This document shows positions 14,730 through 52,884 of a DNA stretch of 64,000 nucleotides, in pieces. The stretch is from Escherichia coli (lineage in GTDB: Bacteria > Pseudomonadota > Gammaproteobacteria > Enterobacterales > Enterobacteriaceae), in NCBI RefSeq assembly GCF_003334405.1, contig NZ_QOWM01000001.1; one strand, written 5' to 3'. Each line of letters begins with the position of its first letter. Position 1 is the stretch's first letter. The position numbers were made by a program, and so were the translations under genes. The notes beneath the pieces are model-generated. The model was given only the letters and a program-made list of their open reading frames with translations, ran no database searches and was not told the DNA's origin.

Positions 14730-15305
14730 ATGACGCAACAAATCACCCTCATTAAAGACAAAATTCTCTCCGATAACTATTTCACCCTGCACAACATTAC
14801 TTACGATCTCACGCGCAAAGACGGCGAAGTTATCCGCCATAAACGTGAAGTGTACGATCGCGGCAATGGTGCGACGATCCTCCTGTACAACACGAAGAAA
14901 AAGACCGTGGTTCTGATTCGTCAGTTCCGTGTCGCTACCTGGGTTAATGGCAATGAAAGCGGGCAGCTGATTGAAAGCTGCGCCGGGCTGCTGGATAACG
15001 ACGAACCGGAAGTGTGTATTCGCAAAGAAGCGATTGAAGAGACGGGCTATGAAGTGGGTGAAGTGCGCAAATTATTTGAACTGTATATGTCGCCAGGCGG
15101 TGTGACTGAGCTAATCCACTTTTTTATCGCCGAATACAGTGACAATCAGCGCGCTAACGCCGGTGGCGGTGTCGAAGATGAAGATATTGAAGTGCTCGAG
15201 CTGCCGTTCAGCCAGGCGCTGGAGATGATCAAAACCGGCGAGATACGTGACGGTAAGACGGTGTTATTGCTTAACTATTTGCAAACGTCACATTTAATGG
15301 ACTGA
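14730..15305 (+). CDS. nudK: GDP-mannose pyrophosphatase NudK (Nudix hydrolase)
   Basis: Product [18 protein letters not shown]... with Nudix box ([22 protein letters not shown]); ATG at 14730. Confidence 0.85.
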
Positions 15306-15430
15306 AAAATAACAATAATATTTCGTTGTTTATTATTGGCTCAATCCGACAAATCCGATTGAGCCGCGCTACCTGCGCAACGAAGATACGACTTGTGCTG
15401 TTTGTTTGAACTTCTGGGGTCGTACCGTCC

Positions 15431-19830: not shown

Positions 19831-22110
19831 ATGGATGACCAGTTAAAACAAAGTGCACTTGATTTCCATGAATTTCCAGTTCCAGGGAAAATCCAGGTTT
19901 CTCCAACCAAGCCTCTGGCAACACAGCGCGATCTGGCGCTGGCCTACTCACCAGGCGTTGCCGCACCTTGTCTTGAAATCGAAAAAGACCCGTTAAAAGC
20001 CTACAAATATACCGCCCGCGGTAACCTGGTGGCGGTGATCTCTAACGGTACGGCGGTGCTGGGGTTAGGCAACATTGGCGCGCTGGCAGGCAAACCGGTG
20101 ATGGAAGGCAAGGGCGTTCTGTTTAAGAAATTCGCCGGGATTGATGTATTTGACATTGAAGTTGACGAACTCGACCCGGACAAATTTATTGAAGTTGTCG
20201 CCGCGCTCGAACCAACCTTCGGCGGCATCAACCTCGAAGACATTAAAGCGCCAGAATGTTTCTATATTGAACAGAAACTGCGCGAGCGGATGAATATTCC
20301 GGTATTCCACGACGATCAGCACGGCACGGCAATTATCAGCACTGCCGCCATCCTCAACGGCTTGCGCGTGGTGGAGAAAAACATCTCCGACGTGCGGATG
20401 GTGGTTTCCGGCGCGGGTGCCGCAGCAATCGCCTGTATGAACCTGCTGGTAGCGCTGGGTCTGCAAAAACATAACATCGTGGTTTGCGATTCAAAAGGCG
20501 TTATCTATCAGGGCCGTGAGCCAAACATGGCGGAAACCAAAGCCGCATATGCGGTGGTGGATGACGGCAAACGTACCCTCGATGATGTGATTGAAGGCGC
20601 GGATATTTTCCTGGGCTGTTCCGGCCCGAAAGTGCTGACCCAGGAAATGGTGAAGAAAATGGCTCGTGCGCCAATGATCCTGGCGCTGGCGAACCCGGAA
20701 CCGGAAATTCTGCCGCCGCTGGCGAAAGAAGTGCGTCCGGATGCCATCATTTGCACCGGTCGTTCTGACTATCCGAACCAGGTGAACAACGTCCTGTGCT
20801 TCCCGTTCATCTTCCGTGGCGCGCTGGACGTTGGCGCAACCGCCATCAACGAAGAGATGAAACTGGCGGCGGTACGTGCGATTGCAGAACTCGCCCATGC
20901 GGAACAGAGCGAAGTGGTGGCTTCAGCGTATGGCGATCAGGATCTGAGCTTTGGTCCGGAATACATCATTCCAAAACCGTTTGATCCGCGCTTGATCGTT
21001 AAGATCGCTCCTGCGGTCGCTAAAGCCGCGATGGAGTCGGGCGTGGCGACTCGTCCGATTGCTGATTTCGACGTCTACATCGACAAGCTGACTGAGTTCG
21101 TTTACAAAACCAACCTGTTTATGAAGCCGATTTTCTCCCAGGCTCGCAAAGCGCCGAAGCGCGTTGTTCTGCCGGAAGGGGAAGAGGCGCGCGTTCTGCA
21201 TGCCACTCAGGAACTGGTAACGCTGGGACTGGCGAAACCGATCCTTATCGGTCGTCCGAACGTGATCGAAATGCGCATTCAGAAACTGGGCTTGCAGATC
21301 AAAGCGGGCGTTGATTTTGAGATCGTCAATAACGAATCCGATCCGCGCTTTAAAGAGTACTGGACCGAATACTTCCAGATCATGAAGCGTCGCGGCGTCA
21401 CTCAGGAACAGGCGCAGCGGGCGCTGATCAGTAACCCGACAGTGATCGGCGCGATCATGGTTCAGCGTGGGGAAGCCGATGCAATGATTTGCGGTACGGT
21501 GGGTGATTATCATGAACATTTTAGCGTGGTGAAAAATGTCTTTGGTTATCGCGATGGCGTTCACACCGCAGGTGCCATGAACGCGCTGCTGCTGCCGAGT
21601 GGTAACACCTTTATTGCCGATACATATGTTAATGATGAACCGGATGCAGAAGAGCTGGCGGAGATCACCTTGATGGCGGCAGAAACTGTCCGTCGTTTTG
21701 GTATTGAGCCGCGCGTTGCTTTGTTGTCGCACTCCAACTTTGGTTCTTCTGACTGCCCGTCGTCGAGCAAAATGCGTCAGGCGCTGGAACTGGTCAGGGA
21801 ACGTGCACCAGAACTGATGATTGATGGTGAAATGCACGGCGATGCAGCGCTGGTGGAAGCGATTCGCAACGACCGTATGCCGGACAGCTCTTTGAAAGGT
21901 TCCGCCAATATTCTGGTGATGCCGAACATGGAAGCTGCCCGCATTAGTTACAACTTACTGCGTGTTTCCAGCTCGGAAGGTGTGACTGTCGGCCCGGTGC
22001 TGATGGGTGTGGCGAAACCGGTTCACGTGTTAACGCCGATCGCATCGGTGCGTCGTATCGTCAACATGGTGGCGCTGGCCGTGGTAGAAGCGCAAACCCA
22101 ACCGCTGTAA
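19831..22110 (+). CDS. maeB: NADP-dependent malic enzyme with C-terminal phosphotransacetylase-like domain
   Basis: 759-aa product [28 protein letters not shown]...; divergent from talA. Confidence 0.95.
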
Positions 22111-22126
22111 TTTTTTTTAACTCTCA

Positions 22127-22152
22127 CGCTTACCCTGAATATTCAGGGTAAG
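22127..22152 (+). terminator. Putative maeB terminator hairpin
   Basis: Perfect palindrome cttaccctgaatattcagggtaag 17 nt after the maeB stop; the downstream T-run is weak. Confidence 0.4.
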
Positions 22153-22402
22153 CAGTTTAGCTGCAATATATTAGTAAAGCTTATTACTGAGTTTGCGAAT
22201 AATAAAAAAAAGCAGTCTATATAATATCTCGATATTATTTTATTTATATTCATGCGTTGCATATGAAAGTTTATGCACCACAGCGAATATCTCTCCATTC
22301 TTAGTGATCTACCTCACCTTTTAAACGCGCTTGCCGAATTTTGTTATTTACTCTGACGAAAAATTGTCACGATACACGAAAGTTTTTCACAGGCGGCGAC
22401 TC

Positions 22403-22738
22403 ATGGATAAAGAACGCATCATTCAGGAATTTGTGCCCGGCAAACAGGTCACACTGGCGCATCTCATCGCGCATCCCGGTGAGGAACTGGCGAAGAAAAT
22501 CGGCGTTCCGGATGCGGGCGCAATTGGCATTATGACGCTAACTCCCGGCGAAACGGCGATGATCGCCGGTGATTTAGCGCTGAAAGCCGCTGATGTGCAT
22601 ATCGGTTTTCTCGACCGATTCAGCGGTGCATTGGTGATTTATGGCTCGGTGGGCGCAGTAGAAGAAGCGTTATCACAAACCGTCAGCGGTTTAGGTCGCT
22701 TATTAAATTATACGCTTTGTGAAATGACCAAAAGTTAA
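22403..22738 (+). CDS. eutS: Ethanolamine-utilisation microcompartment shell protein EutS
   Basis: 111-aa product [21 protein letters not shown]...; ATG at 22403, the ORF-track start being an upstream extension. Confidence 0.9.
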
Positions 22739-22750
22739 TACGAGGCATTC

Positions 22751-23230
22751 ATGAAACGAATTGCGTTTGTGGGTAGCGTCGGGGCAGGAAAAACAACGTT
22801 ATTTAATGCGTTGCAGGGGAATTATACCCTCGCCAGAAAAACACAGGCCGTGGAATTTAATGATAAGGGCGATATTGATACGCCGGGTGAATATTTTAAC
22901 CATCCCCGCTGGTATCACGCCTTAATTACCACGCTACAGGATGTAGACATGCTGATCTATGTCCATGGCGCAAATGACCCGGAAAGTCGGTTGCCTGCCG
23001 GGTTGCTGGATATTGGCGTCAGCAAACGGCAAATCGCCGTCATCAGTAAAACGGACATGCCAGATGCTGACGTCGCCGCAACGCGAAAGTTATTGCTTGA
23101 GACGGGCTTCGAAGAGCCGATTTTCGAGCTAAACAGCCACGACCCGCAAAGCGTGCAGCAACTGGTGGATTATCTGGCATCTCTCACCAAACAGGAGGAA
23201 GCAGGTGAAAAAACTCATCACAGCGAATGA
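22751..23230 (+). CDS. eutP: Eut GTPase/acetate-kinase-like protein EutP
   Basis: 159-aa ORF with a P-loop (GSVGAGKTT). Confidence 0.9.
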   Translation: MKRIAFVGSVGAGKTTLFNALQGNYTLARKTQAVEFNDKGDIDTPGEYFNHPRWYHALITTLQDVDMLIYVHGANDPESRLPAGLLDIGVSKRQIAVISKTDMPDADVAATRKLLLETGFEEPIFELNSHDPQSVQQLVDYLASLTKQEEAGEKTHHSE

Positions 23231-23906
23231 TATTCGTGAAGCACACGCGCGCGGCGAACAGGCAATGTCCGTGGTTCTGCGCGCCAGCATTATTACCCCG
23301 GAAGCCCGTGAAGTGGCGGATCTACTGGGTTTTACCATCACCGAATGTGATGAATCGATCCCGGTAACGGCGTCCGTGCCCGCCAGCGTGCCAGCCGACA
23401 AAACCGAAAGCCAGCGCATCCGCGAAACCATCATTGCCCAGCTGCCGGAAGGCCAGTTTACCGAAAGCCTGGTCGCACAGCTGATGGAAAAAGTGATGAA
23501 GGAAAAACAGTCGCTGGAGCAGGGCGCAATGCAGCCGAGCTTCAAATCGGTGACCGGCAAAGGCGGCATCAAAGTGATTGATGGCAGTAGCGTCAAGTTT
23601 GGTCGTTTCGACGGCGCAGAGCCGCATTGCGTGGGCTTGACTGATCTTGTGACCGGAGACGACGGCAGCAGCATGGCCGCCGGTTTTATGCAGTGGGAGA
23701 ACGCATTCTTCCCGTGGACCCTGAACTACGACGAAATCGACATGGTGCTGGAAGGGGAGCTGCATGTTCGCCACGAAGGCCAAACCATGATCGCCAAAGC
23801 AGGCGACGTGATGTTTATCCCGAAAGGCTCCAGCATCGAATTTGGTACGACATCCAGCGTGAAATTCCTGTATGTCGCCTGGCCGGCTAACTGGCAATCC
23901 CTATGA
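23205..23906 (+). CDS. eutQ: Cupin-fold protein EutQ
   Basis: 233-aa ORF with a GTG start preceded by aggagg; overlaps the eutP 3' end by 26 nt. Confidence 0.9.
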   Translation: MKKLITANDIREAHARGEQAMSVVLRASIITPEAREVADLLGFTITECDESIPVTASVPASVPADKTESQRIRETIIAQLPEGQFTESLVAQLMEKVMKEKQSLEQGAMQPSFKSVTGKGGIKVIDGSSVKFGRFDGAEPHCVGLTDLVTGDDGSSMAAGFMQWENAFFPWTLNYDEIDMVLEGELHVRHEGQTMIAKAGDVMFIPKGSSIEFGTTSSVKFLYVAWPANWQSL

Positions 23907-24706
23907 AAGATTTCATCACCGAAGCATGGCTAAGAGCGAACCATACGCTCAGCGAAGGCGCAGAGATCCATCTCCCTGCGGACAGTCGCCTGACGCCCTC
24001 TGCCCGGGAGTTGCTGGAAAGCCGCCATCTGCGCATCAAGTTTATTGACGAGCAGGGCCGCCTGTTTGTTGACGATGAACAGCAGCAGCCGCAGCCCGTT
24101 CATGGGCTGACCAGTAGCGATGAACATCCGCAGGCGTGCTGCGAACTGTGTCGCCAGCCGGTGGCAAAAAAGCCGGATACGCTGACTCACCTGTCGGCGG
24201 AAAAAATGGTCGCCAAAAGCGATCCGCGTCTGGGTTTTCGCGCGGTTCTCGACAGCACCATTGCGCTGGCAGTGTGGCTGCAAATTGAACTGGCGGAACC
24301 GTGGCAGCCGTGGCTGGCGGATATCCGTTCGCGTCTTGGCAACATTATGCGCGCCGATGCGCTGGGGGAACCGCTGGGCTGCCAGGCGATTGTCGGGCTT
24401 TCTGACGAAGATCTGCATCGGCTTTCTCATCAGCCGCTGCGCTATCTCGACCACGATCATCTGGTGCCGGAAGCCAGCCACGGGCGCGATGCTGCGTTGC
24501 TCAATCTGCTACGCACCAAAGTGCGGGAAACCGAAACCGTAGCGGCGCAGGTCTTTATCACCCGCAGCTTTGAAGTATTACGCCCGGACATTTTGCAGGC
24601 GCTGAACCGCCTTTCGAGCACGGTCTACGTGATGATGATCCTGAGCGTAACGAAGCAGCCGCTAACGGTGAAGCAGATCCAACAACGACTGGGGGAAACG
24701 CAATGA
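23903..24706 (+). CDS. eutT: Cobalamin adenosyltransferase EutT
   Basis: 267-aa ORF; its start overlaps the eutQ stop (ATGA). Confidence 0.9.
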
Positions 24707-25719
24707 TTATTGAACGTTGTCGTGAACTGGCGTTGCGAGCGCCCGCCAGAGTGGTTTTTCCGGATGCGTTAGACCAACGTGTGCTGAAAGCCGCGCAATA
24801 TTTACATCAACAAGGTCTGGCAACGCCCATTCTGGTCGCCAATCCGTTTGAACTTCGTCAGTTTGCGCTCAGTCACGGCGTGGCGATGGACGGGCTACAG
24901 GTGATTGATCCGCATGGCAACCTCGCAATGCGGGAAGAATTTGCTCATCGCTGGCTGGCCCGCGCGGGCGAAAAAACGCCGCCGGATGCGCTGGAAAAAC
25001 TTACCGACCCTCTGATGTTCGCCGCAGCAATGGTCAGCGCCGGTAAAGCGGATGTCTGTATCGCGGGCAACCTCTCTTCCACGGCAAATGTGCTGCGTGC
25101 CGGATTACGCATTATCGGCTTGCAGCCAGGCTGTAAAACGCTCTCTTCCATTTTCCTGATGTTGCCACAGTACAGCGGCCCGGCGTTGGGCTTTGCCGAT
25201 TGCAGCGTGGTGCCACAGCCGACGGCGGCGCAGCTGGCGGATATCGCGCTTGCCAGTGCCGAAACCTGGCGCGCCATCACCGGAGAAGAGCCGCGCGTGG
25301 CGATGCTGTCGTTTTCCAGCAATGGTAGCGCCCGTCACCCCTGTGTTGCTAACGTCCAGCAGGCGACAGAAATCGTCCGTGAGCGCGCACCAAAGCTGGT
25401 GGTGGATGGCGAGTTACAGTTTGACGCCGCCTTCGTGCCGGAAGTGGCGGCGCAAAAAGCGCCTGCCAGCCCGCTACAGGGCAAGGCCAATGTGATGGTT
25501 TTTCCGTCGCTGGAAGCCGGAAATATTGGTTACAAAATCGCACAACGACTCGGCGGATATCGTGCCGTCGGGCCACTGATACAAGGACTTGCCGCGCCGA
25601 TGCACGATCTCTCTCGTGGTTGTAGCGTGCAGGAAATTATCGAGCTGGCGCTGGTGGCAGCTGTGCCGCGTCAGACAGAAGTGAACCGCGAAAGCAGTTT
25701 ACAAACACTGGTTGAATGA
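24703..25719 (+). CDS. eutD: Phosphotransacetylase EutD
   Basis: 338-aa PTA-family ORF; its start overlaps the eutT stop. Confidence 0.9.
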
Positions 25720-25757
25720 ACGGTCCCGTTCTGGACCCTGATAAAGAGGAAAGCACA

Positions 25758-26051
25758 ATGGAAGCATTAGGAATGATCGAAACCCGGGGCCTGGTTGCAC
25801 TGATTGAGGCTTCTGACGCGATGGTGAAAGCTGCGCGCGTCAAGCTGGTTGGTGTTAAGCAGATTGGCGGCGGCCTGTGTACTGCCATGGTTCGTGGTGA
25901 TGTTGCAGCCTGTAAAGCCGCGACCGATGCAGGTGCCGCAGCGGCACAGCGTATCGGCGAGCTGGTATCTGTACACGTTATCCCGCGTCCGCACGGCGAC
26001 CTGGAAGAAGTCTTCCCGATCGGCCTGAAAGGCGATAGCAGCAACCTGTAA
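25758..26051 (+). CDS. eutM: Microcompartment shell protein EutM
   Basis: BMC-domain product [28 protein letters not shown]...; start set at the internal ATG. Confidence 0.9.
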
Positions 26052-26157
26052 TCACCCTGTGTGACGTCGATTCGGGCGTCACGCTCTCTCCTTTTTCATT
26101 TTACCTTCTGCGGAGGGTAGGGGGAGCTTTTACCTGAAATACGCCACGGAGGCGGGT

Positions 26158-26445
26158 ATGAAACTGGCAGTCGTCACTGGACAAATTGTTTGTACCGTAC
26201 GCCATCACGGACTGGCGCATGACAAATTGCTGATGGTGGAAATGATTGATCCACAAGGTAATCCTGACGGGCAATGCGCCGTCGCCATCGACAATATTGG
26301 CGCGGGAACCGGGGAGTGGGTGTTACTGGTGAGTGGCAGTTCCGCCCGCCAGGCGCATAAAAGCGAAACGTCACCGGTCGATCTGTGCGTGATTGGCATT
26401 GTCGATGAGGTGGTGTCTGGCGGTCAGGTAATTTTCCACAAATAA
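26158..26445 (+). CDS. eutN: Microcompartment vertex protein EutN
   Basis: 95-aa product MKLAVVTGQIVCTVRHHGL... (EutN/CcmL family). Confidence 0.9.
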   Translation: MKLAVVTGQIVCTVRHHGLAHDKLLMVEMIDPQGNPDGQCAVAIDNIGAGTGEWVLLVSGSSARQAHKSETSPVDLCVIGIVDEVVSGGQVIFHK

Positions 26446-26456
26446 GGCAGAACATC

Positions 26457-27860
26457 ATGAATCAACAGGATATTGAACAGGTGGTGAAAGCGGTACTGCT
26501 GAAAATGCAAAGCAGTGACACGCCGTCCGCCGCCGTTCATGAGATGGGCGTTTTCGCGTCCCTGGATGACGCCGTTGCGGCAGCCAAAGTCGCCCAGCAA
26601 GGGTTAAAAAGCGTGGCAATGCGCCAGTTAGCCATTGCTGCCATTCGTGAAGCAGGCGAAAAACACGCCAGAGATTTAGCGGAACTTGCCGTCAGTGAAA
26701 CCGGCATGGGGCGCGTTGAAGATAAATTTGCAAAAAACGTCGCTCAGGCGCGCGGCACACCAGGCGTTGAGTGCCTCTCTCCGCAAGTGCTGACTGGCGA
26801 CAACGGCCTGACCCTAATTGAAAACGCACCCTGGGGCGTGGTGGCTTCGGTGACGCCTTCCACTAACCCGGCGGCAACCGTAATTAACAACGCCATCAGC
26901 CTGATTGCCGCGGGCAACAGCGTCATTTTTGCCCCGCATCCGGCGGCGAAAAAAGTCTCCCAGCGGGCGATTACGCTGCTCAACCAGGCGATTGTTGCCG
27001 CAGGTGGGCCGGAAAACTTACTGGTTACTGTGGCAAATCCGGATATCGAAACCGCGCAACGCTTGTTCAAGTTTCCGGGTATCGGCCTGCTGGTGGTAAC
27101 CGGCGGCGAAGCGGTAGTAGAAGCGGCGCGTAAACACACCAATAAACGTCTGATTGCCGCAGGCGCTGGCAACCCGCCGGTAGTGGTGGATGAAACCGCC
27201 GACCTCGCCCGTGCCGCTCAGTCCATCGTCAAAGGCGCTTCTTTCGATAACAACATCATTTGTGCCGACGAAAAGGTACTGATTGTTGTTGATAGCGTAG
27301 CCGATGAACTGATGCGTCTGATGGAAGGCCAGCACGCGGTGAAACTGACCGCAGAACAGGCGCAGCAGCTGCAACCGGTGTTGCTGAAAAATATCGACGA
27401 GCGCGGAAAAGGCACCGTCAGCCGTGACTGGGTTGGTCGCGACGCAGGCAAAATCGCGGCGGCAATCGGCCTTAAAGTTCCGCAAGAAACGCGCCTGCTG
27501 TTTGTGGAAACCACCGCAGAACATCCGTTTGCCGTGACTGAACTGATGATGCCGGTGTTGCCCGTCGTGCGCGTCGCCAACGTGGCGGATGCCATTGCGC
27601 TAGCGGTGAAACTGGAAGGCGGTTGCCACCACACGGCGGCAATGCACTCGCGCAACATCGAAAACATGAACCAGATGGCGAATGCTATTGATACCAGCAT
27701 TTTCGTTAAGAACGGACCGTGCATTGCCGGGCTGGGGCTGGGCGGGGAAGGCTGGACCACCATGACCATCACCACGCCAACCGGTGAAGGGGTAACCAGC
27801 GCGCGTACGTTTGTCCGTCTGCGTCGCTGTGTATTAGTCGATGCGTTTCGCATTGTTTAA
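26457..27860 (+). CDS. eutE: CoA-acylating acetaldehyde dehydrogenase EutE
   Basis: 467-aa aldehyde dehydrogenase-family ORF. Confidence 0.95.
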   Translation: MNQQDIEQVVKAVLLKMQSSDTPSAAVHEMGVFASLDDAVAAAKVAQQGLKSVAMRQLAIAAIREAGEKHARDLAELAVSETGMGRVEDKFAKNVAQARGTPGVECLSPQVLTGDNGLTLIENAPWGVVASVTPSTNPAATVINNAISLIAAGNSVIFAPHPAAKKVSQRAITLLNQAIVAAGGPENLLVTVANPDIETAQRLFKFPGIGLLVVTGGEAVVEAARKHTNKRLIAAGAGNPPVVVDETADLARAAQSIVKGASFDNNIICADEKVLIVVDSVADELMRLMEGQHAVKLTAEQAQQLQPVLLKNIDERGKGTVSRDWVGRDAGKIAAAIGLKVPQETRLLFVETTAEHPFAVTELMMPVLPVVRVANVADAIALAVKLEGGCHHTAAMHSRNIENMNQMANAIDTSIFVKNGPCIAGLGLGGEGWTTMTITTPTGEGVTSARTFVRLRRCVLVDAFRIV

Positions 27861-27870
27861 GGAGTAACAG

Positions 27871-28707
27871 ATGGCGCACGACGAACAATGGCTCACCCCA
27901 CGTCTGCAAACGGCGGCAACGCTGTGTAACCAGACGCCCGCCGCGACGGAATCTCCGCTGTGGCTGGGGGTGGATCTGGGCACCTGCGATGTGGTGTCGA
28001 TGGTTGTCGACCGCGACGGTCAGCCAGTGGCGGTATGCCTCGACTGGGCCGATGTGGTTCGCGACGGCATCGTCTGGGATTTCTTCGGCGCTGTCACCAT
28101 TGTTCGTCGCCATCTCGACACGCTCGAGCAGCAATTCGGTCGTCGTTTTAGCCATGCGGCGACTTCATTTCCTCCAGGTACGGACCCGCGTATTTCCATC
28201 AACGTGCTGGAATCTGCCGGACTGGAAGTGAGCCATGTGCTGGATGAGCCAACCGCAGTTGCGGATCTGCTGCAACTGGACAACGCCGGTGTAGTGGATA
28301 TCGGCGGCGGCACTACCGGCATTGCCATCGTGAAAAAGGGCAAGGTGACGTACTCGGCGGATGAAGCCACCGGCGGACATCACATCTCTCTGACTCTCGC
28401 CGGAAATCGCCGTATTTCGCTGGAAGAGGCGGAGCAGTACAAGCGCGGTCACGGTGAAGAGATTTGGCCTGCGGTGAAACCGGTGTACGAAAAAATGGCG
28501 GACATTGTCGCCCGGCATATTGAAGGGCAGGGCATTACTGATTTATGGCTGGCGGGCGGCTCTTGTATGCAACCGGGCGTGGCGGAACTGTTTCGCAAAC
28601 AATTCCCGGCGTTACAGGTGCATTTACCGCAGCACAGTTTGTTTATGACCCCGCTGGCGATCGCCAGTAGTGGGCGAGAGAAAGCGGAGGGGCTATATGC
28701 AAAATGA
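27871..28707 (+). CDS. eutJ: Actin/Hsp70-fold chaperone-like protein EutJ
   Basis: 278-aa ORF with DLGT and GGGTTG ATPase motifs. Confidence 0.9.
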   Translation: MAHDEQWLTPRLQTAATLCNQTPAATESPLWLGVDLGTCDVVSMVVDRDGQPVAVCLDWADVVRDGIVWDFFGAVTIVRRHLDTLEQQFGRRFSHAATSFPPGTDPRISINVLESAGLEVSHVLDEPTAVADLLQLDNAGVVDIGGGTTGIAIVKKGKVTYSADEATGGHHISLTLAGNRRISLEEAEQYKRGHGEEIWPAVKPVYEKMADIVARHIEGQGITDLWLAGGSCMQPGVAELFRKQFPALQVHLPQHSLFMTPLAIASSGREKAEGLYAK

Positions 28708-29884
28708 ATTGCAGACCGCGCTCTTTCAGGCGTTCGATACCCTGAATCTGCAACGGGTAAAAACATTTAGCGTTCCACCGGTGACGCTTTGCGGTCCGGG
28801 CTCGGTGAGCAGTTGCGGACAGCAAGCGCAAACGCGTGGGCTGAAACATCTGTTCGTGATGGCAGACAGCTTTTTGCATCAGGCAGGGATGACCGCCGGG
28901 CTGACGCGTAGCCTGACCGTTAAAGGTATCGCCATGACGCTCTGGCCATGTCCGGTGGGCGAACCGTGCATTACCGACGTGTGTGCAGCCGTGGCGCAGT
29001 TGCGTGAGTCAGGCTGTGATGGGGTGATCGCGTTTGGCGGCGGCTCGGTGCTGGATGCGGCGAAAGCCGTGACGTTGCTGGTGACGAACCCGGATAGCAC
29101 GCTGGCAGAGATGTCAGAAACCAGCGTTCTGCAACCGCGCTTGCCGCTGATTGCCATTCCAACTACCGCCGGAACCGGCTCTGAAACCACCAATGTAACG
29201 GTGATTATCGACGCGGTGAGCGGGCGCAAGCAGGTGTTAGCCCATGCCTCGCTGATGCCGGATGTGGCGATCCTCGACGCCGCATTGACCGAAGGTGTGC
29301 CGTCGCATGTCACGGCGATGACCGGCATTGATGCGTTAACCCATGCCATTGAAGCATACAGCGCCCTGAACGCTACACCGTTTACCGACAGTCTGGCGAT
29401 TGGTGCCATTGCGATGATTGGCAAATCGCTGCCGAAAGCGGTGGGCTACGGTCACGACCTTGCCGCGCGCGAGAGCATGTTGCTGGCTTCATGTATGGCG
29501 GGAATGGCGTTTTCCAGTGCGGGTCTTGGGTTGTGCCACGCGATGGCGCATCAGCCGGGCGCGGCGCTGCATATTCCGCACGGTCTCGCGAACGCCATGT
29601 TGCTGCCAACGGTGATGGAATTTAACCGGATGGTTTGTCGTGAACGCTTTAGTCAGATTGGTCGGGCACTGCGAACTAAAAAATCCGACGATCGTGACGC
29701 TATTAACGCGGTAAGTGAGCTGATTGCGGAAGTTGGGATTGGTAAACGACTGGGCGATGTTGGTGCGACATCTGCGCATTACGGCGCATGGGCGCAGGCC
29801 GCGCTGGAAGATATTTGTCTGCGCAGTAACCCGCGTACCGCCAGCCTGGAGCAGATTGTCGGCCTGTACGCAGCGGCGCAATAA
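28697..29884 (+). CDS. eutG: Iron-containing alcohol dehydrogenase EutG
   Basis: Product MQNELQTALFQAFDTLNLQ...; ATG at 28697 overlapping the eutJ 3' end. Confidence 0.9.
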   Translation: MQNELQTALFQAFDTLNLQRVKTFSVPPVTLCGPGSVSSCGQQAQTRGLKHLFVMADSFLHQAGMTAGLTRSLTVKGIAMTLWPCPVGEPCITDVCAAVAQLRESGCDGVIAFGGGSVLDAAKAVTLLVTNPDSTLAEMSETSVLQPRLPLIAIPTTAGTGSETTNVTVIIDAVSGRKQVLAHASLMPDVAILDAALTEGVPSHVTAMTGIDALTHAIEAYSALNATPFTDSLAIGAIAMIGKSLPKAVGYGHDLAARESMLLASCMAGMAFSSAGLGLCHAMAHQPGAALHIPHGLANAMLLPTVMEFNRMVCRERFSQIGRALRTKKSDDRDAINAVSELIAEVGIGKRLGDVGATSAHYGAWAQAALEDICLRSNPRTASLEQIVGLYAAAQ

Positions 29885-29886
29885 AT

Positions 29887-30070
<184 letters not shown>

Positions 30071-30100
30071 ATAAATAACAACTAACAGGGAGTAAAGGCG

Positions 30101-31327
30101 ATGGGAATTAACGAAATCATCATGTACATCATGATGTTCTTTATGCTGATAGCTGCCGTAGACAGGATCCTGTCGCAGTTCGGCGGTTCTGCTCGTTTCC
30201 TCGGTAAGTTCGGTAAAAGTATCGAAGGATCAGGCGGTCAGTTCGAAGAAGGCTTTATGGCAATGGGCGCACTGGGCCTGGCGATGGTCGGTATGACCGC
30301 GCTGGCACCGGTACTGGCTCACGTTCTCGGGCCGGTAATTATTCCGGTTTACGAAATGCTCGGCGCTAACCCATCGATGTTCGCCGGAACACTGCTGGCG
30401 TGCGATATGGGCGGCTTCTTCCTCGCCAAAGAGCTGGCGGGCGGCGACGTAGCCGCGTGGCTATACTCTGGGTTAATTCTCGGGTCGATGATGGGGCCAA
30501 CGATTGTGTTTTCCATTCCGGTGGCGCTCGGCATTATCGAACCTTCTGACCGTCGTTATCTGGCGCTCGGCGTGCTGGCGGGCATTGTGACCATTCCGAT
30601 TGGTTGTATCGCTGGTGGTCTGGTTGCTATGTACTCCGGTGTGCAGATCAACGGCCAGCCGGTGGAATTCACTTTCGCCCTGATCCTGATGAACATGATC
30701 CCGGTGATCATTGTTGCGATTCTGGTGGCGCTGGGGCTGAAATTCATCCCGGAAAAAATGATCAACGGCTTCCAGATCTTCGCCAAATTCCTCGTTGCAT
30801 TGATCACCCTCGGTCTTGCCGCTGCGGTAGTGAAATTCCTGCTTGGCTGGGAACTGATCCCCGGTCTGGATCCTATCTTTATGGCCCCTGGCGATAAACC
30901 CGGTGAGGTGATGCGCGCCATTGAAGTTATCGGTTCTATCTCCTGCGTTCTGTTAGGGGCGTATCCGATGGTGCTGCTGCTGACTCGCTGGTTTGAAAAA
31001 CCGCTGATGAGCGTCGGTAAAGTACTGAATATGAACAACATCGCGGCAGCCGGCATGGTGGCAACGCTTGCCAACAACATCCCGATGTTCGGCATGATGA
31101 AGCAGATGGATACCCGCGGCAAAGTCATCAACTGCGCCTTCGCCGTTTCCGCTGCTTTCGCCCTAGGCGACCACTTAGGCTTCGCCGCTGCCAACATGAA
31201 CGCCATGATCTTCCCGATGATTGTCGGCAAGTTGATCGGCGGCGTAACGGCGATTGGCGTGGCGATGATGCTGGTGCCAAAAGAAGACGCGACCGCGACT
31301 AAAACCGAAGCGGAGGCACAATCGTGA
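30101..31327 (+). CDS. eutH: Ethanolamine permease EutH
   Basis: 408-aa polytopic membrane protein. Confidence 0.9.
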   Translation: MGINEIIMYIMMFFMLIAAVDRILSQFGGSARFLGKFGKSIEGSGGQFEEGFMAMGALGLAMVGMTALAPVLAHVLGPVIIPVYEMLGANPSMFAGTLLACDMGGFFLAKELAGGDVAAWLYSGLILGSMMGPTIVFSIPVALGIIEPSDRRYLALGVLAGIVTIPIGCIAGGLVAMYSGVQINGQPVEFTFALILMNMIPVIIVAILVALGLKFIPEKMINGFQIFAKFLVALITLGLAAAVVKFLLGWELIPGLDPIFMAPGDKPGEVMRAIEVIGSISCVLLGAYPMVLLLTRWFEKPLMSVGKVLNMNNIAAAGMVATLANNIPMFGMMKQMDTRGKVINCAFAVSAAFALGDHLGFAAANMNAMIFPMIVGKLIGGVTAIGVAMMLVPKEDATATKTEAEAQS

Positions 31328-32727
31328 ACACTCGCCAGCTATTGAGCGTCGGTATCGATATCGGCACCACCACCACCCAGGTGATTTTCTCCCGGCTGGA
31401 GCTGGTTAACCGTGCGGCGGTGTCGCAGGTGCCGCGCTACGAATTCATTAAACGCGAAATTAGCTGGCAAAGTCCGGTGTTCTTTACCCCTGTCGATAAA
31501 CAGGGCGGTTTAAAAGAAGCGGAACTGAAAACCTTAATACTCGAGCAATATCATGCTGCGGGTATTGAGCCGGAAAGCGTTGATTCTGGTGCCATCATCA
31601 TCACCGGTGAAAGCGCGAAAACCCGCAATGCTCGCCCGGCGGTGATGGCGCTCTCTCAGTCGCTGGGCGATTTTGTCGTTGCCAGCGCCGGGCCGCACCT
31701 CGAATCCGTGATCGCCGGTCACGGAGCCGGGGCACAAACCCTTTCTGAACAACGGCTGTGTCGGGTACTGAATATCGACATCGGCGGTGGCACCGCGAAC
31801 TACGCCCTGTTCGATGCCGGAAAAATCAGCGGCACTGCCTGCCTCAACGTCGGTGGTCGCCTGCTGGAAACCGACAGCCACGGGCGCGTGGTTTACGCTC
31901 ATAAACCGGGGCAGATGATTGTGGATGAGTGCTTCGGTGCAGGCACCGACGCCCGTTCGCTGACCGGCGCGCAGCTGGTGCAGGTGACCCGGCGGATGGC
32001 AGAACTGATTGTCGAAGTGATTGACGGAACGCTCTCACCGCTCGCGCAGGCATTGATGCAAACCGGTTTGCTGCCCGCAGGTGTTACGCCCGAAATCATT
32101 ACGCTTTCTGGCGGCGTGGGCGAATGTTATCGCCACCAGCCCGCCGACCCGTTCTGTTTTGCCGATATTGGCCCGCTGCTGGCAACTGCGCTGCATGACC
32201 ATCCGCGCCTGCGTGAGATGAACGTACAGTTTCCGGCGCAAACCGTGCGCGCCACGGTGATTGGCGCGGGCGCGCATACCCTTTCGCTCTCTGGCAGCAC
32301 AATCTGGCTTGAGGGCGTACAACTGCCGCTGCGCAATTTGCCGGTGGCGATCCCGATTGATGAAACGGATCTGGTGGGGGCCTGGCAACAGGCGCTGATT
32401 CAGCTGGATCTTGATCCCAAAACTGACGCGTACGTGCTGGCGCTTCCCGCCTCGCTGCCTGTGCGTTACGCCGCGGTACTGACGGTCATCAACGCGTTGG
32501 TCGATTTCGTCGCGCGTTTTCCGAATCCGCATCCCCTGCTGGTGGTGGCCGGGCAGGACTTTGGTAAAGCTCTGGGCATGTTGTTGCGCCCACAGCTACA
32601 ACAACTCCCGTTGGCAGTCATTGACGAAGTGATTGTCCGCGCGGGGGACTATATCGACATTGGTACGCCTCTTTTTGGCGGATCGGTTGTGCCGGTGACG
32701 GTGAAATCACTCGCATTTCCTTCCTGA
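31324..32727 (+). CDS. eutA: Ethanolamine ammonia-lyase reactivase EutA
   Basis: 467-aa ORF with a GTG start overlapping the eutH stop; product MNTRQLLSVGIDIGTTTTQ... Confidence 0.9.
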   Translation: MNTRQLLSVGIDIGTTTTQVIFSRLELVNRAAVSQVPRYEFIKREISWQSPVFFTPVDKQGGLKEAELKTLILEQYHAAGIEPESVDSGAIIITGESAKTRNARPAVMALSQSLGDFVVASAGPHLESVIAGHGAGAQTLSEQRLCRVLNIDIGGGTANYALFDAGKISGTACLNVGGRLLETDSHGRVVYAHKPGQMIVDECFGAGTDARSLTGAQLVQVTRRMAELIVEVIDGTLSPLAQALMQTGLLPAGVTPEIITLSGGVGECYRHQPADPFCFADIGPLLATALHDHPRLREMNVQFPAQTVRATVIGAGAHTLSLSGSTIWLEGVQLPLRNLPVAIPIDETDLVGAWQQALIQLDLDPKTDAYVLALPASLPVRYAAVLTVINALVDFVARFPNPHPLLVVAGQDFGKALGMLLRPQLQQLPLAVIDEVIVRAGDYIDIGTPLFGGSVVPVTVKSLAFPS

Positions 32728-32738
32728 GGGAACGACTT

Positions 32739-34100
32739 ATGAAACTAAAGACCACATTGTTCGGCAATGTATATCAGTTTAAGGATGTAAAAGAGGTGCT
32801 GGCTAAAGCCAACGAACTGCGTTCGGGGGATGTGCTGGCGGGCGTCGCAGCGGCAAGCTCACAGGAGCGCGTGGCGGCAAAGCAGGTGTTGTCGGAAATG
32901 ACCGTAGCGGACATCCGCAATAATCCGGTGATTGCCTATGAAGATGACTGCGTGACGCGGCTGATTCAGGACGATGTTAACGAAACGGCCTACAACCAGA
33001 TTAAAAACTGGAGCATCAGCGAACTGCGTGAGTATGTGCTGAGCGATGAAACCAGCGTGGACGACATTGCCTTTACCCGCAAAGGGCTGACCTCGGAAGT
33101 GGTCGCGGCGGTAGCGAAGATTTGCTCCAACGCGGACCTGATCTACGGCGCGAAGAAAATGCCGGTAATCAAAAAGGCCAATACCACCATCGGTATTCCG
33201 GGCACCTTTAGCGCCCGTTTGCAGCCAAATGACACCCGTGACGACGTGCAAAGTATCGCCGCGCAAATCTACGAAGGGCTTTCCTTCGGGGTGGGCGATG
33301 CGGTGATCGGCGTTAACCCGGTGACTGACGACGTGGAAAACTTAAGCCGCGTGTTGGATACCATCTATGGCGTGATCGACAAATTCAACATCCCAACTCA
33401 GGGCTGTGTACTGGCGCACGTCACCACCCAGATCGAAGCGATCCGTCGTGGCGCACCGGGCGGGCTGATTTTCCAGAGTATCTGTGGCAGCGAAAAAGGG
33501 CTGAAAGAGTTTGGCGTGGAGCTGGCGATGCTCGACGAAGCGCGCGCAGTGGGCGCGGAGTTCAACCGTATCGCCGGGGAAAACTGCCTCTACTTCGAAA
33601 CCGGACAAGGCTCTGCGCTATCCGCTGGCGCTAACTTCGGCGCAGACCAGGTAACGATGGAAGCACGTAACTACGGGCTGGCGCGTCATTACGATCCGTT
33701 TATCGTCAACACCGTGGTCGGCTTTATTGGGCCGGAGTATCTCTACAACGACCGCCAGATTATCCGTGCTGGCTTAGAAGATCACTTTATGGGCAAGCTG
33801 AGCGGCATCTCTATGGGCTGTGACTGCTGTTATACCAACCACGCTGACGCTGACCAGAACCTCAACGAAAACCTGATGATCCTGCTCGCCACCGCAGGCT
33901 GCAACTACATCATGGGGATGCCGCTGGGTGATGACATCATGCTCAACTACCAGACCACCGCATTCCACGATACCGCCACTGTGCGTCAGTTACTCAACCT
34001 GCGCCCGTCACCGGAGTTTGAACGCTGGCTGGAAAGCATGGGCATTATGGCAAACGGTCGCCTGACCAAACGGGCGGGCGATCCGTCACTGTTCTTCTGA
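32739..34100 (+). CDS. eutB: Ethanolamine ammonia-lyase large subunit EutB
   Basis: 453-aa ORF starting 11 bp after the eutA stop, with no intervening insertion. Confidence 0.95.
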   Translation: MKLKTTLFGNVYQFKDVKEVLAKANELRSGDVLAGVAAASSQERVAAKQVLSEMTVADIRNNPVIAYEDDCVTRLIQDDVNETAYNQIKNWSISELREYVLSDETSVDDIAFTRKGLTSEVVAAVAKICSNADLIYGAKKMPVIKKANTTIGIPGTFSARLQPNDTRDDVQSIAAQIYEGLSFGVGDAVIGVNPVTDDVENLSRVLDTIYGVIDKFNIPTQGCVLAHVTTQIEAIRRGAPGGLIFQSICGSEKGLKEFGVELAMLDEARAVGAEFNRIAGENCLYFETGQGSALSAGANFGADQVTMEARNYGLARHYDPFIVNTVVGFIGPEYLYNDRQIIRAGLEDHFMGKLSGISMGCDCCYTNHADADQNLNENLMILLATAGCNYIMGMPLGDDIMLNYQTTAFHDTATVRQLLNLRPSPEFERWLESMGIMANGRLTKRAGDPSLFF

Positions 34101-34120
34101 TGACGCGGAGATAACATATC

Positions 34121-35008
34121 ATGGATCAAAAACAGATTGAAGAAATTGTACGCAGCGTGATGGCGTCAATGGGACAAGCGGCCCCCGCGCCGTCAGAAGC
34201 AAAGTGCGCCACCACCAACTGTGCGGCACCGGTGACCTCGGAAAGCTGTGCGCTGGATTTAGGTTCCGCTGAAGCAAAAGCGTGGATTGGTGTTGAAAAT
34301 CCGCATCGCGCAGACGTATTAACAAAACTGCGCCGCAGCACCGTGGCCCGCGTTTGTACCGGTCGTGCCGGTCCGCGTCCACGTACGCAGGCGCTGCTGC
34401 GTTTCCTGGCCGATCACTCTCGTTCGAAAGATACCGTACTGAAAGAAGTGCCGGAAGAGTGGGTGAAAGCGCAGGGCTTGCTGGAAGTACGCTCTGAAAT
34501 TAGCGACAAAAATCTCTACCTGACTCGCCCGGATATGGGCCGCCGCCTGTGTGCAGAAGCTGTTGAAGCGCTGAAAGCGCAGTGTGTTGCCAATCCGGAC
34601 GTACAGGTCGTTATTTCTGATGGCCTGTCAACTGATGCGATCACCGTGAACTACGAAGAGATCCTGCCACCGCTGATGGCGGGCCTGAAACAGGCCGGGC
34701 TGAAAGTCGGTACACCATTCTTTGTTCGTTATGGTCGCGTGAAGATTGAAGATCAGATCGGTGAGATCCTCGGCGCGAAAGTAGTGATCCTGCTGGTGGG
34801 CGAACGTCCGGGGTTGGGTCAGTCAGAAAGCCTCTCCTGCTACGCCGTTTACTCGCCGCGTATGGCGACCACCGTTGAGGCCGATCGCACCTGTATCTCT
34901 AACATTCACCAGGGCGGCACGCCGCCGGTTGAAGCCGCAGCCGTCATTGTGGATTTGGCGAAACGTATGCTGGAGCAGAAAGCATCCGGCATCAACATGA
35001 CCCGATAA
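34121..35008 (+). CDS. eutC: Ethanolamine ammonia-lyase small subunit EutC
   Basis: 295-aa ORF. Confidence 0.95.
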
Positions 35009-35017
35009 GGAGGCATC

Positions 35018-35677
35018 ATGCCAGCTTTAGATTTGATTCGACCGTCTGTCACCGCTATGCGGGTGATTGCCTCCGTTAACGCCGATTTTGCGCGTGAACT
35101 GAAATTGCCGCCGCATATTCGTAGCCTCGGTCTGATTTCTGCCGACTCCGATGACGTCACCTACATTGCCGCTGATGAAGCGACCAAGCAGGCGATGGTG
35201 GAAGTGGTGTATGGCCGCTCGCTATATGCGGGCGCTGCACACGGCCCGTCACCGACTGCCGGTGAAGTGCTGATTATGCTTGGTGGGCCAAACCCGGCGG
35301 AAGTGCGTGCAGGTCTGGATGCGATGATTGCGCATATTGAAAATGGCGCAGCTTTCCAGTGGGCTAATGACGCGCAAGATACGGCATTCCTGGCACATGT
35401 AGTTTCGCGTACCGGTTCTTATCTCTCATCAACCGCCGGGATCACGCTTGGCGATCCGATGGCGTATCTGGTGGCACCGCCGCTGGAAGCGACCTATGGC
35501 ATTGATGCAGCCCTGAAGTCTGCCGACGTACAGCTGGCGACCTATGTCCCGCCACCGTCTGAAACCAACTACTCGGCAGCATTTTTAACCGGTAGCCAGG
35601 CAGCGTGTAAAGCAGCCTGTAACGCCTTTACCGATGCAGTGCTGGAAATCGCGCGTAATCCAATCCAGCGTGCGTAA
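35018..35677 (+). CDS. eutL: Microcompartment shell protein EutL
   Basis: 219-aa tandem-BMC-domain ORF. Confidence 0.9.
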
Positions 35678-35689
35678 CGGAGGTTGCCG

Positions 35690-36190
35690 ATGATCAATGC
35701 ACTGGGATTGCTGGAAGTGGACGGCATGGTCGCCGCGATAGATGCAGCGGATGCCATGCTCAAAGCAGCTAACGTTCGTCTGCTCAGTCACGAAGTGCTT
35801 GACCCTGGTCGCTTAACGCTGGTGGTGGAAGGCGATCTGGCGGCGTGTCGTGCGGCGCTGGACGCAGGTTGTGCTGCCGCGATGCGTACCGGGCGTGTCA
35901 TCAGCCGCAAGGAGATCGGTCGGCCAGACGATGACACCCAGTGGCTGGTTACTGGCTTTAACCGCCAGCCGAAGCAACCCGTAAGGGAACCCGACGCGCC
36001 AGTTATCGTCGCGGAATCTGCTGACGAGTTGTTGGCGCTGTTAACATCAGTACGTCAGGGAATGACGGCAGGAGAAGTGGCTGCCCACTTTGGCTGGCCG
36101 CTGGAAAAAGCCAGAAATGCGCTCGAACAGCTCTTTTCTGCCGGGACGTTACGTAAACGCAGTAGTCGTTATCGTCTCAAGCCCCATTAA
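35690..36190 (+). CDS. eutK: Microcompartment shell protein EutK
   Basis: BMC domain followed by a C-terminal basic/helix-turn-helix-like tail; ATG at 35690 preceded by ggagg, the ORF-track start being an upstream TTG. Confidence 0.85.
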   Translation: MINALGLLEVDGMVAAIDAADAMLKAANVRLLSHEVLDPGRLTLVVEGDLAACRAALDAGCAAAMRTGRVISRKEIGRPDDDTQWLVTGFNRQPKQPVREPDAPVIVAESADELLALLTSVRQGMTAGEVAAHFGWPLEKARNALEQLFSAGTLRKRSSRYRLKPH

Positions 36191-36235
36191 CCTGTCGGAG
36201 GTGCCGGGTGTCCTACAACACCCGGCATTAACATC

Positions 36236-37288
36236 ATGAAAAAGACCCGTACAGCCAATTTGCACCATCTTTATCATGAACCCTTACCCGAAAACCTGAA
36301 GCTCACGCCGAAGGTCGAAGTGGATAATGTTCATCAACGACAGACAACGGATGTCTATGAACATGCTTTAACGATTACCGCCTGGCAGCAGATTTACGAT
36401 CAGCTGCATCCGGGCAAGTTTCATGGTGAATTTACGGAAATTCTACTCGATGATATTCAGGTTTTTCGTGAATACACCGGTCTGGCGCTGCGTCAGTCGT
36501 GCCTGGTCTGGCCGAACTCGTTCTGGTTTGGCATTCCGGCGACGCGCGGTGAGCAGGGATTTATCGGTTCGCAATGTCTGGGAAGCGCGGAAATCGCCAC
36601 CCGCCCTGGTGGCACTGAATTTGAACTGAGCACGCCGGATGATTACACGATCCTGGGCGTGGTGCTTTCTGAAGATGTCATCACCCGGCAGGCTAACTTT
36701 TTGCATAACCCGGATCGGGTATTACATATGTTGCGTAACCAGTCGGCGCTGGAAGTGAAAGAGCAGCATAAAGCCGCGCTGTGGGGCTTTGTCCAACAGG
36801 CGCTGGCGACGTTTTGCGAGAATCCGGAAAATCTCCATCAGCCTGCAGTGCGAAAAGTGCTGGGGGATAATTTGCTAATGGCGATGGGGGCCATGCTGGA
36901 AGAAGCGCAACCAATGGTGACGGCGGAAAGCATCAGTCATCAGAGTTACCGTCGATTGCTTTCCCGCGCCCGTGAATATGTGCTGGAAAACATGTCCGAA
37001 CCGGTGACGGTGCTGGATTTGTGTAATCAACTGCATGTCAGCCGCCGCACGCTACAAAACGCGTTTCACGCTATTTTAGGCATTGGCCCGAACGCGTGGC
37101 TGAAACGCATTCGCCTGAACGCCGTACGCCGCGAACTGATAAGTCCGTGGTCGCAAAGTATGACGGTAAAAGACGCCGCCATGCAGTGGGGATTCTGGCA
37201 TCTGGGGCAATTTGCCACGGATTACCAGCAGCTGTTTTCCGAGAAGCCGTCACTGACGCTGCATCAGCGGATGCGGGAGTGGGGGTGA
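36236..37288 (+). CDS. eutR: AraC-family transcriptional activator EutR
   Basis: 350-aa ORF with a C-terminal AraC-type HTH region; a GC hairpin (36204-36225) lies between eutK and eutR. Confidence 0.9.
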
Positions 37289-37293
37289 GGGAG

Positions 37294-38196
<903 letters not shown>

Positions 38197-52785: not shown

Positions 52786-52884
<99 letters not shown>

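Follow-up and report, generated by a model that had tools for sequence, protein, structure and literature searches.

An uninterrupted 17-gene eut operon with an unoccupied CPZ-55 site in an Escherichia coli strain very close to K-12

The stretch of Escherichia coli DNA analysed here, 64,000 nucleotides in length and referred to throughout as the window, very probably carries the canonical enterobacterial EUT1-type eut operon of a very close natural relative of K-12, in which the site used by intZ-type elements is unoccupied and the use of ethanolamine is to be expected. It should be stressed that the region is an ordinary and already well understood E. coli arrangement; as a first-pass annotation of the same DNA had remarked, this is not novel biology. 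The uninterrupted junction occurs in about nine of ten sequenced E. coli genomes, and the finding matters little beyond annotation.

Seventeen co-directional ORFs on the plus strand, spanning positions 22403-37288, correspond to eutS-P-Q-T-D-M-N-E-J-G-H-A-B-C-L-K-R and are flanked by maeB and hemF, as they are in MG1655. Their order and strand follow the 17-gene EUT1-type arrangement with the AraC-type activator EutR encoded last, and the RefSeq annotation gives the same picture. The gene coordinates equal the RefSeq PGAP calls in the near-identical genome CP8-3_Sichuan; the raw longest ORFs of eutS, eutM, eutG and eutK start upstream of the annotated ATGs, and position 22403 is the annotated ATG of eutS.

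22403..22738, plus strand: eutS, BMC shell protein, 111 aa (NF012012, 246 bits, model positions 1-111 of 111; equal to the PGAP coordinates)
22751..23230, plus strand: eutP, acetate kinase/EutP-PduV family, 159 aa (NF012011, 350 bits, full length)
23205..23906, plus strand: eutQ, 233 aa, GTG start, 26-nt overlap with eutP (NF012001, 502 bits, 1-233 of 233)
23903..24706, plus strand: eutT, corrinoid adenosyltransferase, 267 aa (NF011595, 571 bits, full length)
24703..25719, plus strand: eutD, phosphotransacetylase, 338 aa (NF007233, 411 bits; identical to MG1655 eutD)
25758..26051, plus strand: eutM, major BMC-H shell protein, 97 aa (NF012018, 212 bits, 1-97 of 97; PGAP start 25758)
26158..26445, plus strand: eutN, BMC-P vertex protein, 95 aa (NF011992, 210 bits, full length)
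26457..27860, plus strand: eutE, acylating acetaldehyde dehydrogenase, 467 aa (NF011927, 738 bits, full length)
27871..28707, plus strand: eutJ, chaperone-like protein, 278 aa (NF011660, 402 bits)
28697..29884, plus strand: eutG, alcohol dehydrogenase, 395 aa (NF011998, 888 bits, model positions 1-395 of 395; PGAP start 28697)
30101..31327, plus strand: eutH, ethanolamine transporter, 408 aa (NF011665, 874 bits, full length)
31324..32727, plus strand: eutA, ethanolamine ammonia-lyase reactivase, 467 aa (NF007991, 1069 bits, full length)
32739..34100, plus strand: eutB, ethanolamine ammonia-lyase large subunit, 453 aa (NF011649, 665 bits; identical to MG1655)
34121..35008, plus strand: eutC, ethanolamine ammonia-lyase small subunit, 295 aa (NF003971, 340 bits)
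35018..35677, plus strand: eutL, BMC-T shell protein, 219 aa (NF011934, 400 bits)
35690..36190, plus strand: eutK, BMC-H shell protein with a C-terminal nucleic-acid-binding-type domain, 166 aa (NF012010, 361 bits, model positions 1-166 of 166; PGAP start 35690)
36236..37288, plus strand: eutR, AraC-family operon activator, 350 aa (NF007522, 789 bits, full length)

Each of these ORFs is intact and full length, running from a single start to a single stop codon without any stop in between. All 17 proteins match NCBIfam Eut models end to end and above the curated cut-off, the models being dedicated Eut equivalogs for 12 of the 17, Eut-specific subfamily models for EutS and EutB, and generic phosphotransacetylase and aldehyde dehydrogenase models for EutD and EutE; the EutC model, an equivalog, spans residues 52-294. 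Frameshifts and truncations, sought in all 17 genes by ORF inspection and NCBIfam coverage, were not found, and the first-pass description of a complete operon of intact, co-directional genes stands. The model matches identify the signature enzyme, the AdoCbl-dependent ethanolamine ammonia-lyase EutB and EutC, together with its reactivase EutA. Shell proteins of the classes BMC-H (EutM, EutK and EutS), BMC-T (EutL) and BMC-P (EutN) are all five matched full length above cut-off, and the aldehyde core (EutE, EutD and EutG) and the accessory proteins EutT, EutH, EutJ, EutP and EutQ are all present, full length and intact.

The eutA stop codon ends at 32727 and the eutB ATG begins at 32739, leaving the 11-nt spacer that had been pointed out at first reading. 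The junction contains the following feature:

32720..32738, plus strand: empty attachment site, a single core CTTCCTGA (32720-32727) followed by the 11-nt spacer GGGAACGACTT

The 8-bp core is the very end of eutA, with the TGA stop codon, and the spacer bears the ribosome-binding site of eutB; with up to two mismatches allowed, the window contains a single copy of the 22-nt junction that runs from the core through the spacer to the eutB ATG. In MG1655, CPZ-55 (2558691-2565480; 6,790 bp, intZ to yffS) lies exactly between eutA and eutB, as the annotation had stated for the K-12 reference. The element starts directly after the eutA stop codon and has the core at both of its ends, and its insertion with an 8-bp duplication has been reported (PMC6379469). 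Where MG1655 has two copies of the core around CPZ-55, the window has one; the attachment site is therefore empty, and the place at the eutA stop codon where CPZ-55 and its intZ-type relatives insert is unoccupied. No ORF, be it an integrase or otherwise phage-like, and no repeat lies between eutA and eutB in the window sequence, in line with the first reading, and a search of the junction for a prophage scar or remnant (a second core copy, repeats or ORFs) found none.

How informative is an empty site? Of 5,426 complete E. coli genomes, 4,964 (91.5%), across phylogroups, have nothing inserted between eutA and eutB; in the species this arrangement is the usual and presumably also the ancestral one. 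Among the roughly 460 complete genomes with an interrupted junction, 213 have CPZ-55 proper and about 200 others a relative of intZ with 80-90% identity; an example is the 12.4-kb element of the pig strain 1504D004. The literature recognises this site as a hot spot for insertion (PMC6652756). The prophage is also absent from the K-12 derivatives XL1-Blue, whose junction is identical to that of the window, and AG100, and a laboratory stock of W3110 is described as being eut+ and having its operon intact (PMC11334477). Because so large a share of genomes is uninterrupted, the empty site discriminates strain background very little, and the earlier proposal that it fixes the background has to be given up. 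In annotation and strain typing alike, an empty CPZ-55 site by itself is a poor criterion for a non-K-12 call and should not be used as the sole one, being the norm (about 91%) and found in K-12 laboratory derivatives.

The same data qualify the description of the junction as ancestral and un-inserted, which is sound for the species; for this lineage ancestry cannot be shown, since precise excision regenerates the same sequence and a never-occupied site and an excised one look alike. The lineage could thus once have been host to CPZ-55, or to an intZ element related to it, which the integrase later excised precisely, the empty site being secondary. The standing of the site as an insertion hot spot, the many occupied genomes (1504D004 included) and XL1-Blue, in which loss has regenerated exactly the junction of the window, lend this history some plausibility. 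We nevertheless consider it improbable: a never-occupied site would yield an identical sequence, and parsimony favours the latter, given that most genomes are empty and that the closest relatives found likewise have an empty site.

The strain background is better judged from point differences. The window is 99.98% identical to MG1655 over 64 kb and otherwise collinear, with 10 SNPs. Membership of the K-12 lineage would entail CPZ-55 and, over tens of kilobases, near-zero SNPs relative to MG1655; the window lacks the former and shows ten of the latter. The missing prophage is not decisive, as it is absent from some K-12 stocks too (PMC11334477), and the non-K-12 call holds only because of the SNPs, several of which are common to natural isolates; the non-K-12 background proposed at first reading is thus retained on the strength of these SNPs, not of the empty site from which it had been argued. 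The alleles at 4944, 20019, 23107 and 23122 are common to eight natural or collection isolates, among them ML35, A14 and NCTC9041, whose genomes match positions 1-25000 perfectly. A genome search of the kind that had been suggested turned up no complete RefSeq genome identical to the window over its full length: the best hits for the operon differ at 2 sites, and those for the last 25 kb at 1 or more. The MLST loci lie outside the 64-kb window.

Four of the SNPs fall in the operon. Two are in eutP, one synonymous (23107) and one (23122) giving I124 in place of the M124 of MG1655; an exact copy of the I124 protein is present on at least 1000 contigs. The other two are rare: a synonymous change in eutH at 31165 (Leu355, CTA here versus CTG in MG1655) and the charge-reversing EutC E69K at 34325. 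Both are absent from the complete genomes checked, but exact copies exist in public read-set assemblies, and one Logan contig, ERR4578754, matches the window at 100% identity along 6,888 bp with both alleles included. It is conceivable, if doubtful, that the strain represents a sister lineage of K-12 that has seldom been sampled and never acquired CPZ-55, its markers being EutC E69K and the synonymous eutH change. Such a lineage could bracket the time at which the ancestor of K-12 gained the prophage, and E69K might then subtly alter the behaviour of ethanolamine ammonia-lyase in the compartment.

A structurally intact operon could still be functionally impaired if E69K disturbed the assembly or encapsulation of ethanolamine ammonia-lyase. 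The exchange reverses a charge, is the sole difference (K69 for E69) from crystallised E. coli EutC (PDB 5YSN/3ABO chain B, 294 of 295 residues identical), and its 61-nt context has no exact match in the 2,643 complete genomes where the query matched. On the other hand, residue 69 lies outside the N-terminal targeting peptide, EutC 1-20-GFP being in use as a compartment tag (PMC11334477), and the allele is met again in a number of public assemblies that are independent of one another, and hence persists in nature. The notion that E69K affects a conserved residue was rejected, as position 69 is poorly conserved among 47 diverse EutC homologues, 20 of which have R (13) or K (7) there, 9 A and 3 E. 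Impairment by this route is accordingly very unlikely. Also very unlikely is an origin from a laboratory strain of K-12 descent whose CPZ-55 was cured or precisely excised, to which the near-identity and collinearity with MG1655 and the prophage-free XL1-Blue, AG100 and W3110 stocks might point: XL1-Blue equals MG1655 at all nine SNP sites within its span, four alleles of the window are shared with the eight natural or collection isolates, and the ten SNPs bear no single mutagen signature.

For the very close natural relative of K-12 that we favour, the organisation of the transcription unit can be sketched from two non-coding regions:

22111..22402, plus strand: maeB-eutS intergenic region, without any SNP relative to MG1655
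29886..30070, plus strand: two tandem 100-bp REP/BIME-type units in the 216-nt eutG-eutH spacer (Tandem Repeats Finder: period 100, 1.9 copies, 97% match)

The first contains a maeB-distal hairpin (about 22131-22152) and an A/T-rich stretch, in which the EutR-dependent main promoter PI is expected, a position that we infer. A promoter scan upstream of eutS gave no match to the sigma-70 consensus, an outcome to be expected of a promoter that depends on an activator and one that is uninformative here. A weak promoter of its own, PII, has been reported for eutR besides (PMC7617246). Gene spacing ranges from a 26-nt overlap to a 45-nt gap, save for two spacers of 106 and 216 nt, and terminator-like sites show no enrichment (21 observed; expectation 17.4 +/- 4.6). 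Gene spacing and published work together suggest a single intact polycistron. Hairpins in the eutM-eutN spacer and the eutG-eutH REP units could modulate read-through, and the notion of one uniform polycistron may therefore be too simple. The REP region matches Rfam naRNA4 (RF02564) at 29939-30020 with 71.8 bits, and MG1655 has the same arrangement; in strain 1504D004 the eutG-eutH gap is 116 nt, which fits a single REP unit. A scan for known RNA elements returned only REP-type naRNA4 and ES036 matches, and no riboswitch.

The probable function of the locus can be outlined from established work in Salmonella and E. coli, carried over by sequence identity. EutR, together with ethanolamine and adenosylcobalamin, would activate the main promoter upstream of eutS, and the transcript would pass through all 17 tightly packed genes. 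EutS, EutM, EutN, EutL and EutK are predicted to build the shell, and EutH to import the substrate. EutBC, for which EutA serves as reactivase and EutT provides the cofactor, would split ethanolamine into ammonia and acetaldehyde, the latter being converted inside the compartment to acetyl-CoA, acetyl-phosphate and ethanol via EutE, EutD and EutG. Published work on K-12 shows that ethanolamine use needs an uninterrupted operon: in BW25113, ethanolamine elicits a response from eutS and eutR but not from eutB, and the cells form no compartments (PMC7617246). K-12 strains that bear CPZ-55, BW25113 and the common reference strains among them, are unable to use ethanolamine, as the element severs eutBCLK from the promoter that is induced. 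Here nothing separates eutA from eutB, so eutBCLK would stay on the induced transcript, and the strain should consequently be able to use ethanolamine, with added B12 at the very least as a source of nitrogen; in some E. coli whose operons are intact it serves as a nitrogen source only, not as one of carbon (PMC11334477). Induction by ethanolamine and B12 via EutR and the formation of microcompartments are likewise suggested by near-identity to tested K-12 eut+ strains (PMC11334477). An uninterrupted eutA-eutB junction thus predicts Eut microcompartments and use of ethanolamine, a gut- and urine-derived nutrient.

The MG1655 eut locus (b2437-b2462) has the same 17 genes in the same order between the same flanks, with an identical promoter region, REP spacer and 15 of 17 proteins, and differs in its 6,790-bp CPZ-55 (intZ, yffL to yffS) and second copy of CTTCCTGA. 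The same uninterrupted structure is known from BW25113 eut+ and W3110 eut+ (PMC11334477), Nissle 1917 (PMC7617246) and UPEC isolates (PMC6652756). In RefSeq it is shared by CP8-3_Sichuan and XL1-Blue, which differ from the window in point differences only (2 of 18,001 and 9 of 40,601 bases, respectively), and the genomes named here lack its rare alleles at 31165 (eutH) and 34325 (EutC E69K). Further afield lies Salmonella, which makes B12 anaerobically, whereas E. coli does not. The 17-gene eut operon of Salmonella enterica LT2 is said to have been described by Kofoid et al. in 1999 in J Bacteriol 181:5317. Likened here from the literature, this operon belongs to a different species and has diverged substantially in sequence, but gene content, gene order, EutR control via PI and PII and microcompartment function are alike (PMC7617246, PMC11334477), and the Salmonella Eut proteins are reported to be individually >73% identical to their E. 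coli counterparts (PMC11334477).

The eut operon of the window is intact. In an ORF listing of 21000-39000, plus-strand ORFs run unbroken from 22331/22403 to 37288, and an NCBIfam scan recovers the gene order EutS, EutP, EutQ, EutT, EutD (phosphotransacetylase), EutM, EutN, EutE, EutJ, EutG, EutH, EutA, EutB, EutC, EutL, EutK and EutR, each protein spanning its model essentially over the full length with a score far over the curated cut-off. With start codons set as in the RefSeq PGAP calls of a near-identical genome, all 17 genes have a length that is a multiple of three and a single, terminal stop. The operon and the coordinates proposed in the first-pass annotation are thereby borne out by ORF listing, models and start-site check together, and no eut gene is frameshifted. 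Neighbouring genes overlap or lie at most 45 nt apart, except eutM-eutN (106 nt) and eutG-eutH (216 nt); the upstream neighbour of the operon is maeB, and downstream come hemF and amiA, encoded on the other strand.

The eutA-eutB junction is where K-12 MG1655 carries its insertion. In the window eutA ends at 32727 (…TTCCTTCCTGA), eutB starts at 32739, and the 11 nt GGGAACGACTT separate the two, exactly the gap read from the sequence earlier. The ORF listing and a search of the junction found no further coding content in this gap; an integrase or phage-like ORF is absent. In MG1655 (NC_000913.3), the 'cryptic prophage CPZ-55' occupies 2558691-2565480 (6,790 bp, intZ to yffS) between eutB and eutA; its eutA-side boundary reads …GCATTTCCTTCCTGA followed by ATGCGG…, and its eutB-side boundary …GATTCTTCCTGA followed by GGGAACGACTTATG. 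Because the 8-bp CTTCCTGA is present at both boundaries, it is duplicated at the ends of CPZ-55, as reported by Ramisetty and Sudhakari (PMC6379469). The window holds a single copy of CTTCCTGA with the eutB leader directly after it; comparison with the K-12 region therefore identifies the attachment site as unoccupied. The duplicated core includes the eutA stop codon and adjoins the GGGA of the eutB ribosome-binding region, and the K-12 insertion thus interrupts neither reading frame and spares the signals for eutB translation, while separating the two genes by 6.8 kb of oppositely oriented DNA. Since recombination within the core restores the original sequence, an excised site and a never-occupied one are indistinguishable.

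An empty site is the rule in E. coli. When 5,426 complete genomes were searched with a 601-bp probe that has the junction at its centre, the junction was uninterrupted in 4,964, among them O157:H7, O111:H8, O145 and many isolates from humans, animals and the environment; in roughly 460 it is interrupted. CPZ-55 is present at 80% coverage or more in 213 genomes, the carriers among the matches listed being overwhelmingly laboratory K-12 derivatives, and about 200 further genomes hold only an intZ-like integrase (80-90% identity). Pig strain 1504D004 (NZ_CP149565.1), one of these, has a 12.4-kb element between eutA and eutB (3607-16032 in the extracted comparison stretch). Its genes include yffS and those for an intZ-type integrase, an HTH regulator and a protein resembling a terminase small subunit, besides many hypothetical ones; the element seems to be a larger CPZ-55 relative and is possibly a phage satellite. 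This fits an earlier account of the site as a hot spot for prophage insertion (PMC6652756), and the published figure of 8% of 638 genomes (PMC6379469) is consistent with the occupancy counted here. The locus is an ordinary, uninterrupted eut operon of the kind that most E. coli genomes have, a system that is well characterised.

The first-pass annotation had also argued from the junction to the strain: the un-inserted arrangement stands, but the step from there to a fixed, non-K-12 background does not, as prophage-less K-12 strains exist and an empty site by itself does not rule out K-12. The RefSeq genome of XL1-Blue (NZ_CP081007.1; ~20298-20310 of its comparison stretch) lacks CPZ-55, has a junction identical to that of the window and equals MG1655 at all nine window-versus-MG1655 SNP sites within its span, which implies that this laboratory lineage lost the prophage precisely. 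K-12 AG100 (NZ_LN832404.1) is also without CPZ-55; at its junction (3222-3401 of its comparison stretch) a 90-bp segment is duplicated in tandem, made up of the terminal 77 nt of eutA, the spacer and 'AT' from the eutB start codon. This duplication is annotated as a 25-aa EutA fragment and may be a scar of excision or engineering, or else an artefact of assembly. The laboratory W3110 of Jallet et al. is likewise described by them as eut+ with an intact operon (PMC11334477). Another uninterrupted junction occurs in NZ_CP026085.1 (4.83 Mb), labelled 'DH5alpha'; at only 99.3% identity to the window, low for a K-12 derivative, the label would seem to be wrong.

From purC to yfeH, window and MG1655 are collinear, and over the 64 kb only 10 positions differ once the prophage is set aside, which makes the background very similar to K-12. 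Evidence for a natural, non-K-12 strain nevertheless comes from the SNPs, not from the empty site. Eight isolates (ML35, A14, NCTC9041 and others), each a perfect match to window 1-25000, share the alleles at 4944, 20019, 23107 and 23122, and across the operon the best matches come from natural isolates (pig, human, chicken and water). The window as a whole has no match among complete genomes, and the MLST genes lie outside it.

Nor does any complete genome match the 15-kb operon query perfectly. Two operon positions set the window apart from MG1655, XL1-Blue and the near-identical CP8-3_Sichuan genome alike: 31165, synonymous in eutH (Leu355, CTA versus CTG), and 34325, which changes EutC Glu69 to Lys (E69K). 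Neither allele occurs in the complete RefSeq genomes examined; a 61-nt query around the eutC change hit 2,643 complete genomes, none of them exactly. The exact EutC protein is all the same present in a handful of public assemblies, and window 31121-38008 (6,888 bp), with both rare alleles, is reproduced at 100% identity by a Logan contig of run ERR4578754. Being on record there, these alleles are real, rare lineage markers and not errors. Residue 69 is the one difference between this EutC and the crystallised E. coli protein. Among 47 diverse aligned homologues that position is variable (R 13, A 9, K 7, E 3), for which reason E69K is probably neutral; positions 74, 76 and 77 are nearly invariant. 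EutP residue 124 is I in the window and M in MG1655, the I124 version being the common one, on at least 1000 contigs.

The two long spacers carry the following elements:
29886-30070, two tandem REP/BIME-type units of 100 bp (97% identity) in the 216-nt eutG-eutH spacer
29939-30020, naRNA4 (Rfam match), eutG-eutH spacer
26059-26084, 10-bp GC-rich hairpin followed by a U-rich run, in the eutM-eutN spacer (26052-26157)

MG1655 likewise has two REP/BIME-type units, whereas the 116-nt gap of 1504D004 fits a single one; copy number seems to differ between strains. The eutM-eutN spacer contains a second hairpin, and 26045-26160 (116 nt, spacer included) has a folding energy of -43.5 kcal/mol (z = -2.8 relative to shuffled sequences). 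These hairpins might terminate transcription in part or stabilise the mRNA, and so set the ratio of EutM, the major shell protein, to downstream gene products. Across the eut region, terminator-like hairpins show no excess over shuffled sequence. Outside the operon, Rfam gathering-level matches are naRNA4 (REP-type, both strands) at 5151-5227 between ypfH and dapE/ypfN and ES036/CssrF at 52807-52849 between cysM and yfeS, both with the MG1655 sequence.

The mechanism is that established in Salmonella and E. coli, transferred by near-identity; the window sequence adds nothing new to it. With ethanolamine and adenosylcobalamin, EutR would switch on PI, the promoter ahead of eutS; PII, a weak promoter, is described as maintaining eutR expression (PMC7617246). 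EutS, EutM, EutN, EutL and EutK would form the shell around EutBC, EutE, EutD and EutG, with EutA and EutT predicted to maintain the cofactor and EutH to import the substrate. Experiments in K-12 have directly tested what an uninterrupted junction does (PMC11334477, PMC7617246). BW25113, in which CPZ-55 is present, has the phenotype of a eut deletion mutant (PMC11334477); it responds to ethanolamine in eutS and eutR and not in eutB, and compartments are not seen (PMC7617246). After scarless removal of CPZ-55, BW25113 grows again with ethanolamine as its nitrogen source (PMC11334477). Because the restored BW25113 eut+ operon should differ from that of the window at four bases, the window strain is expected to show the BW25113 eut+ phenotype.
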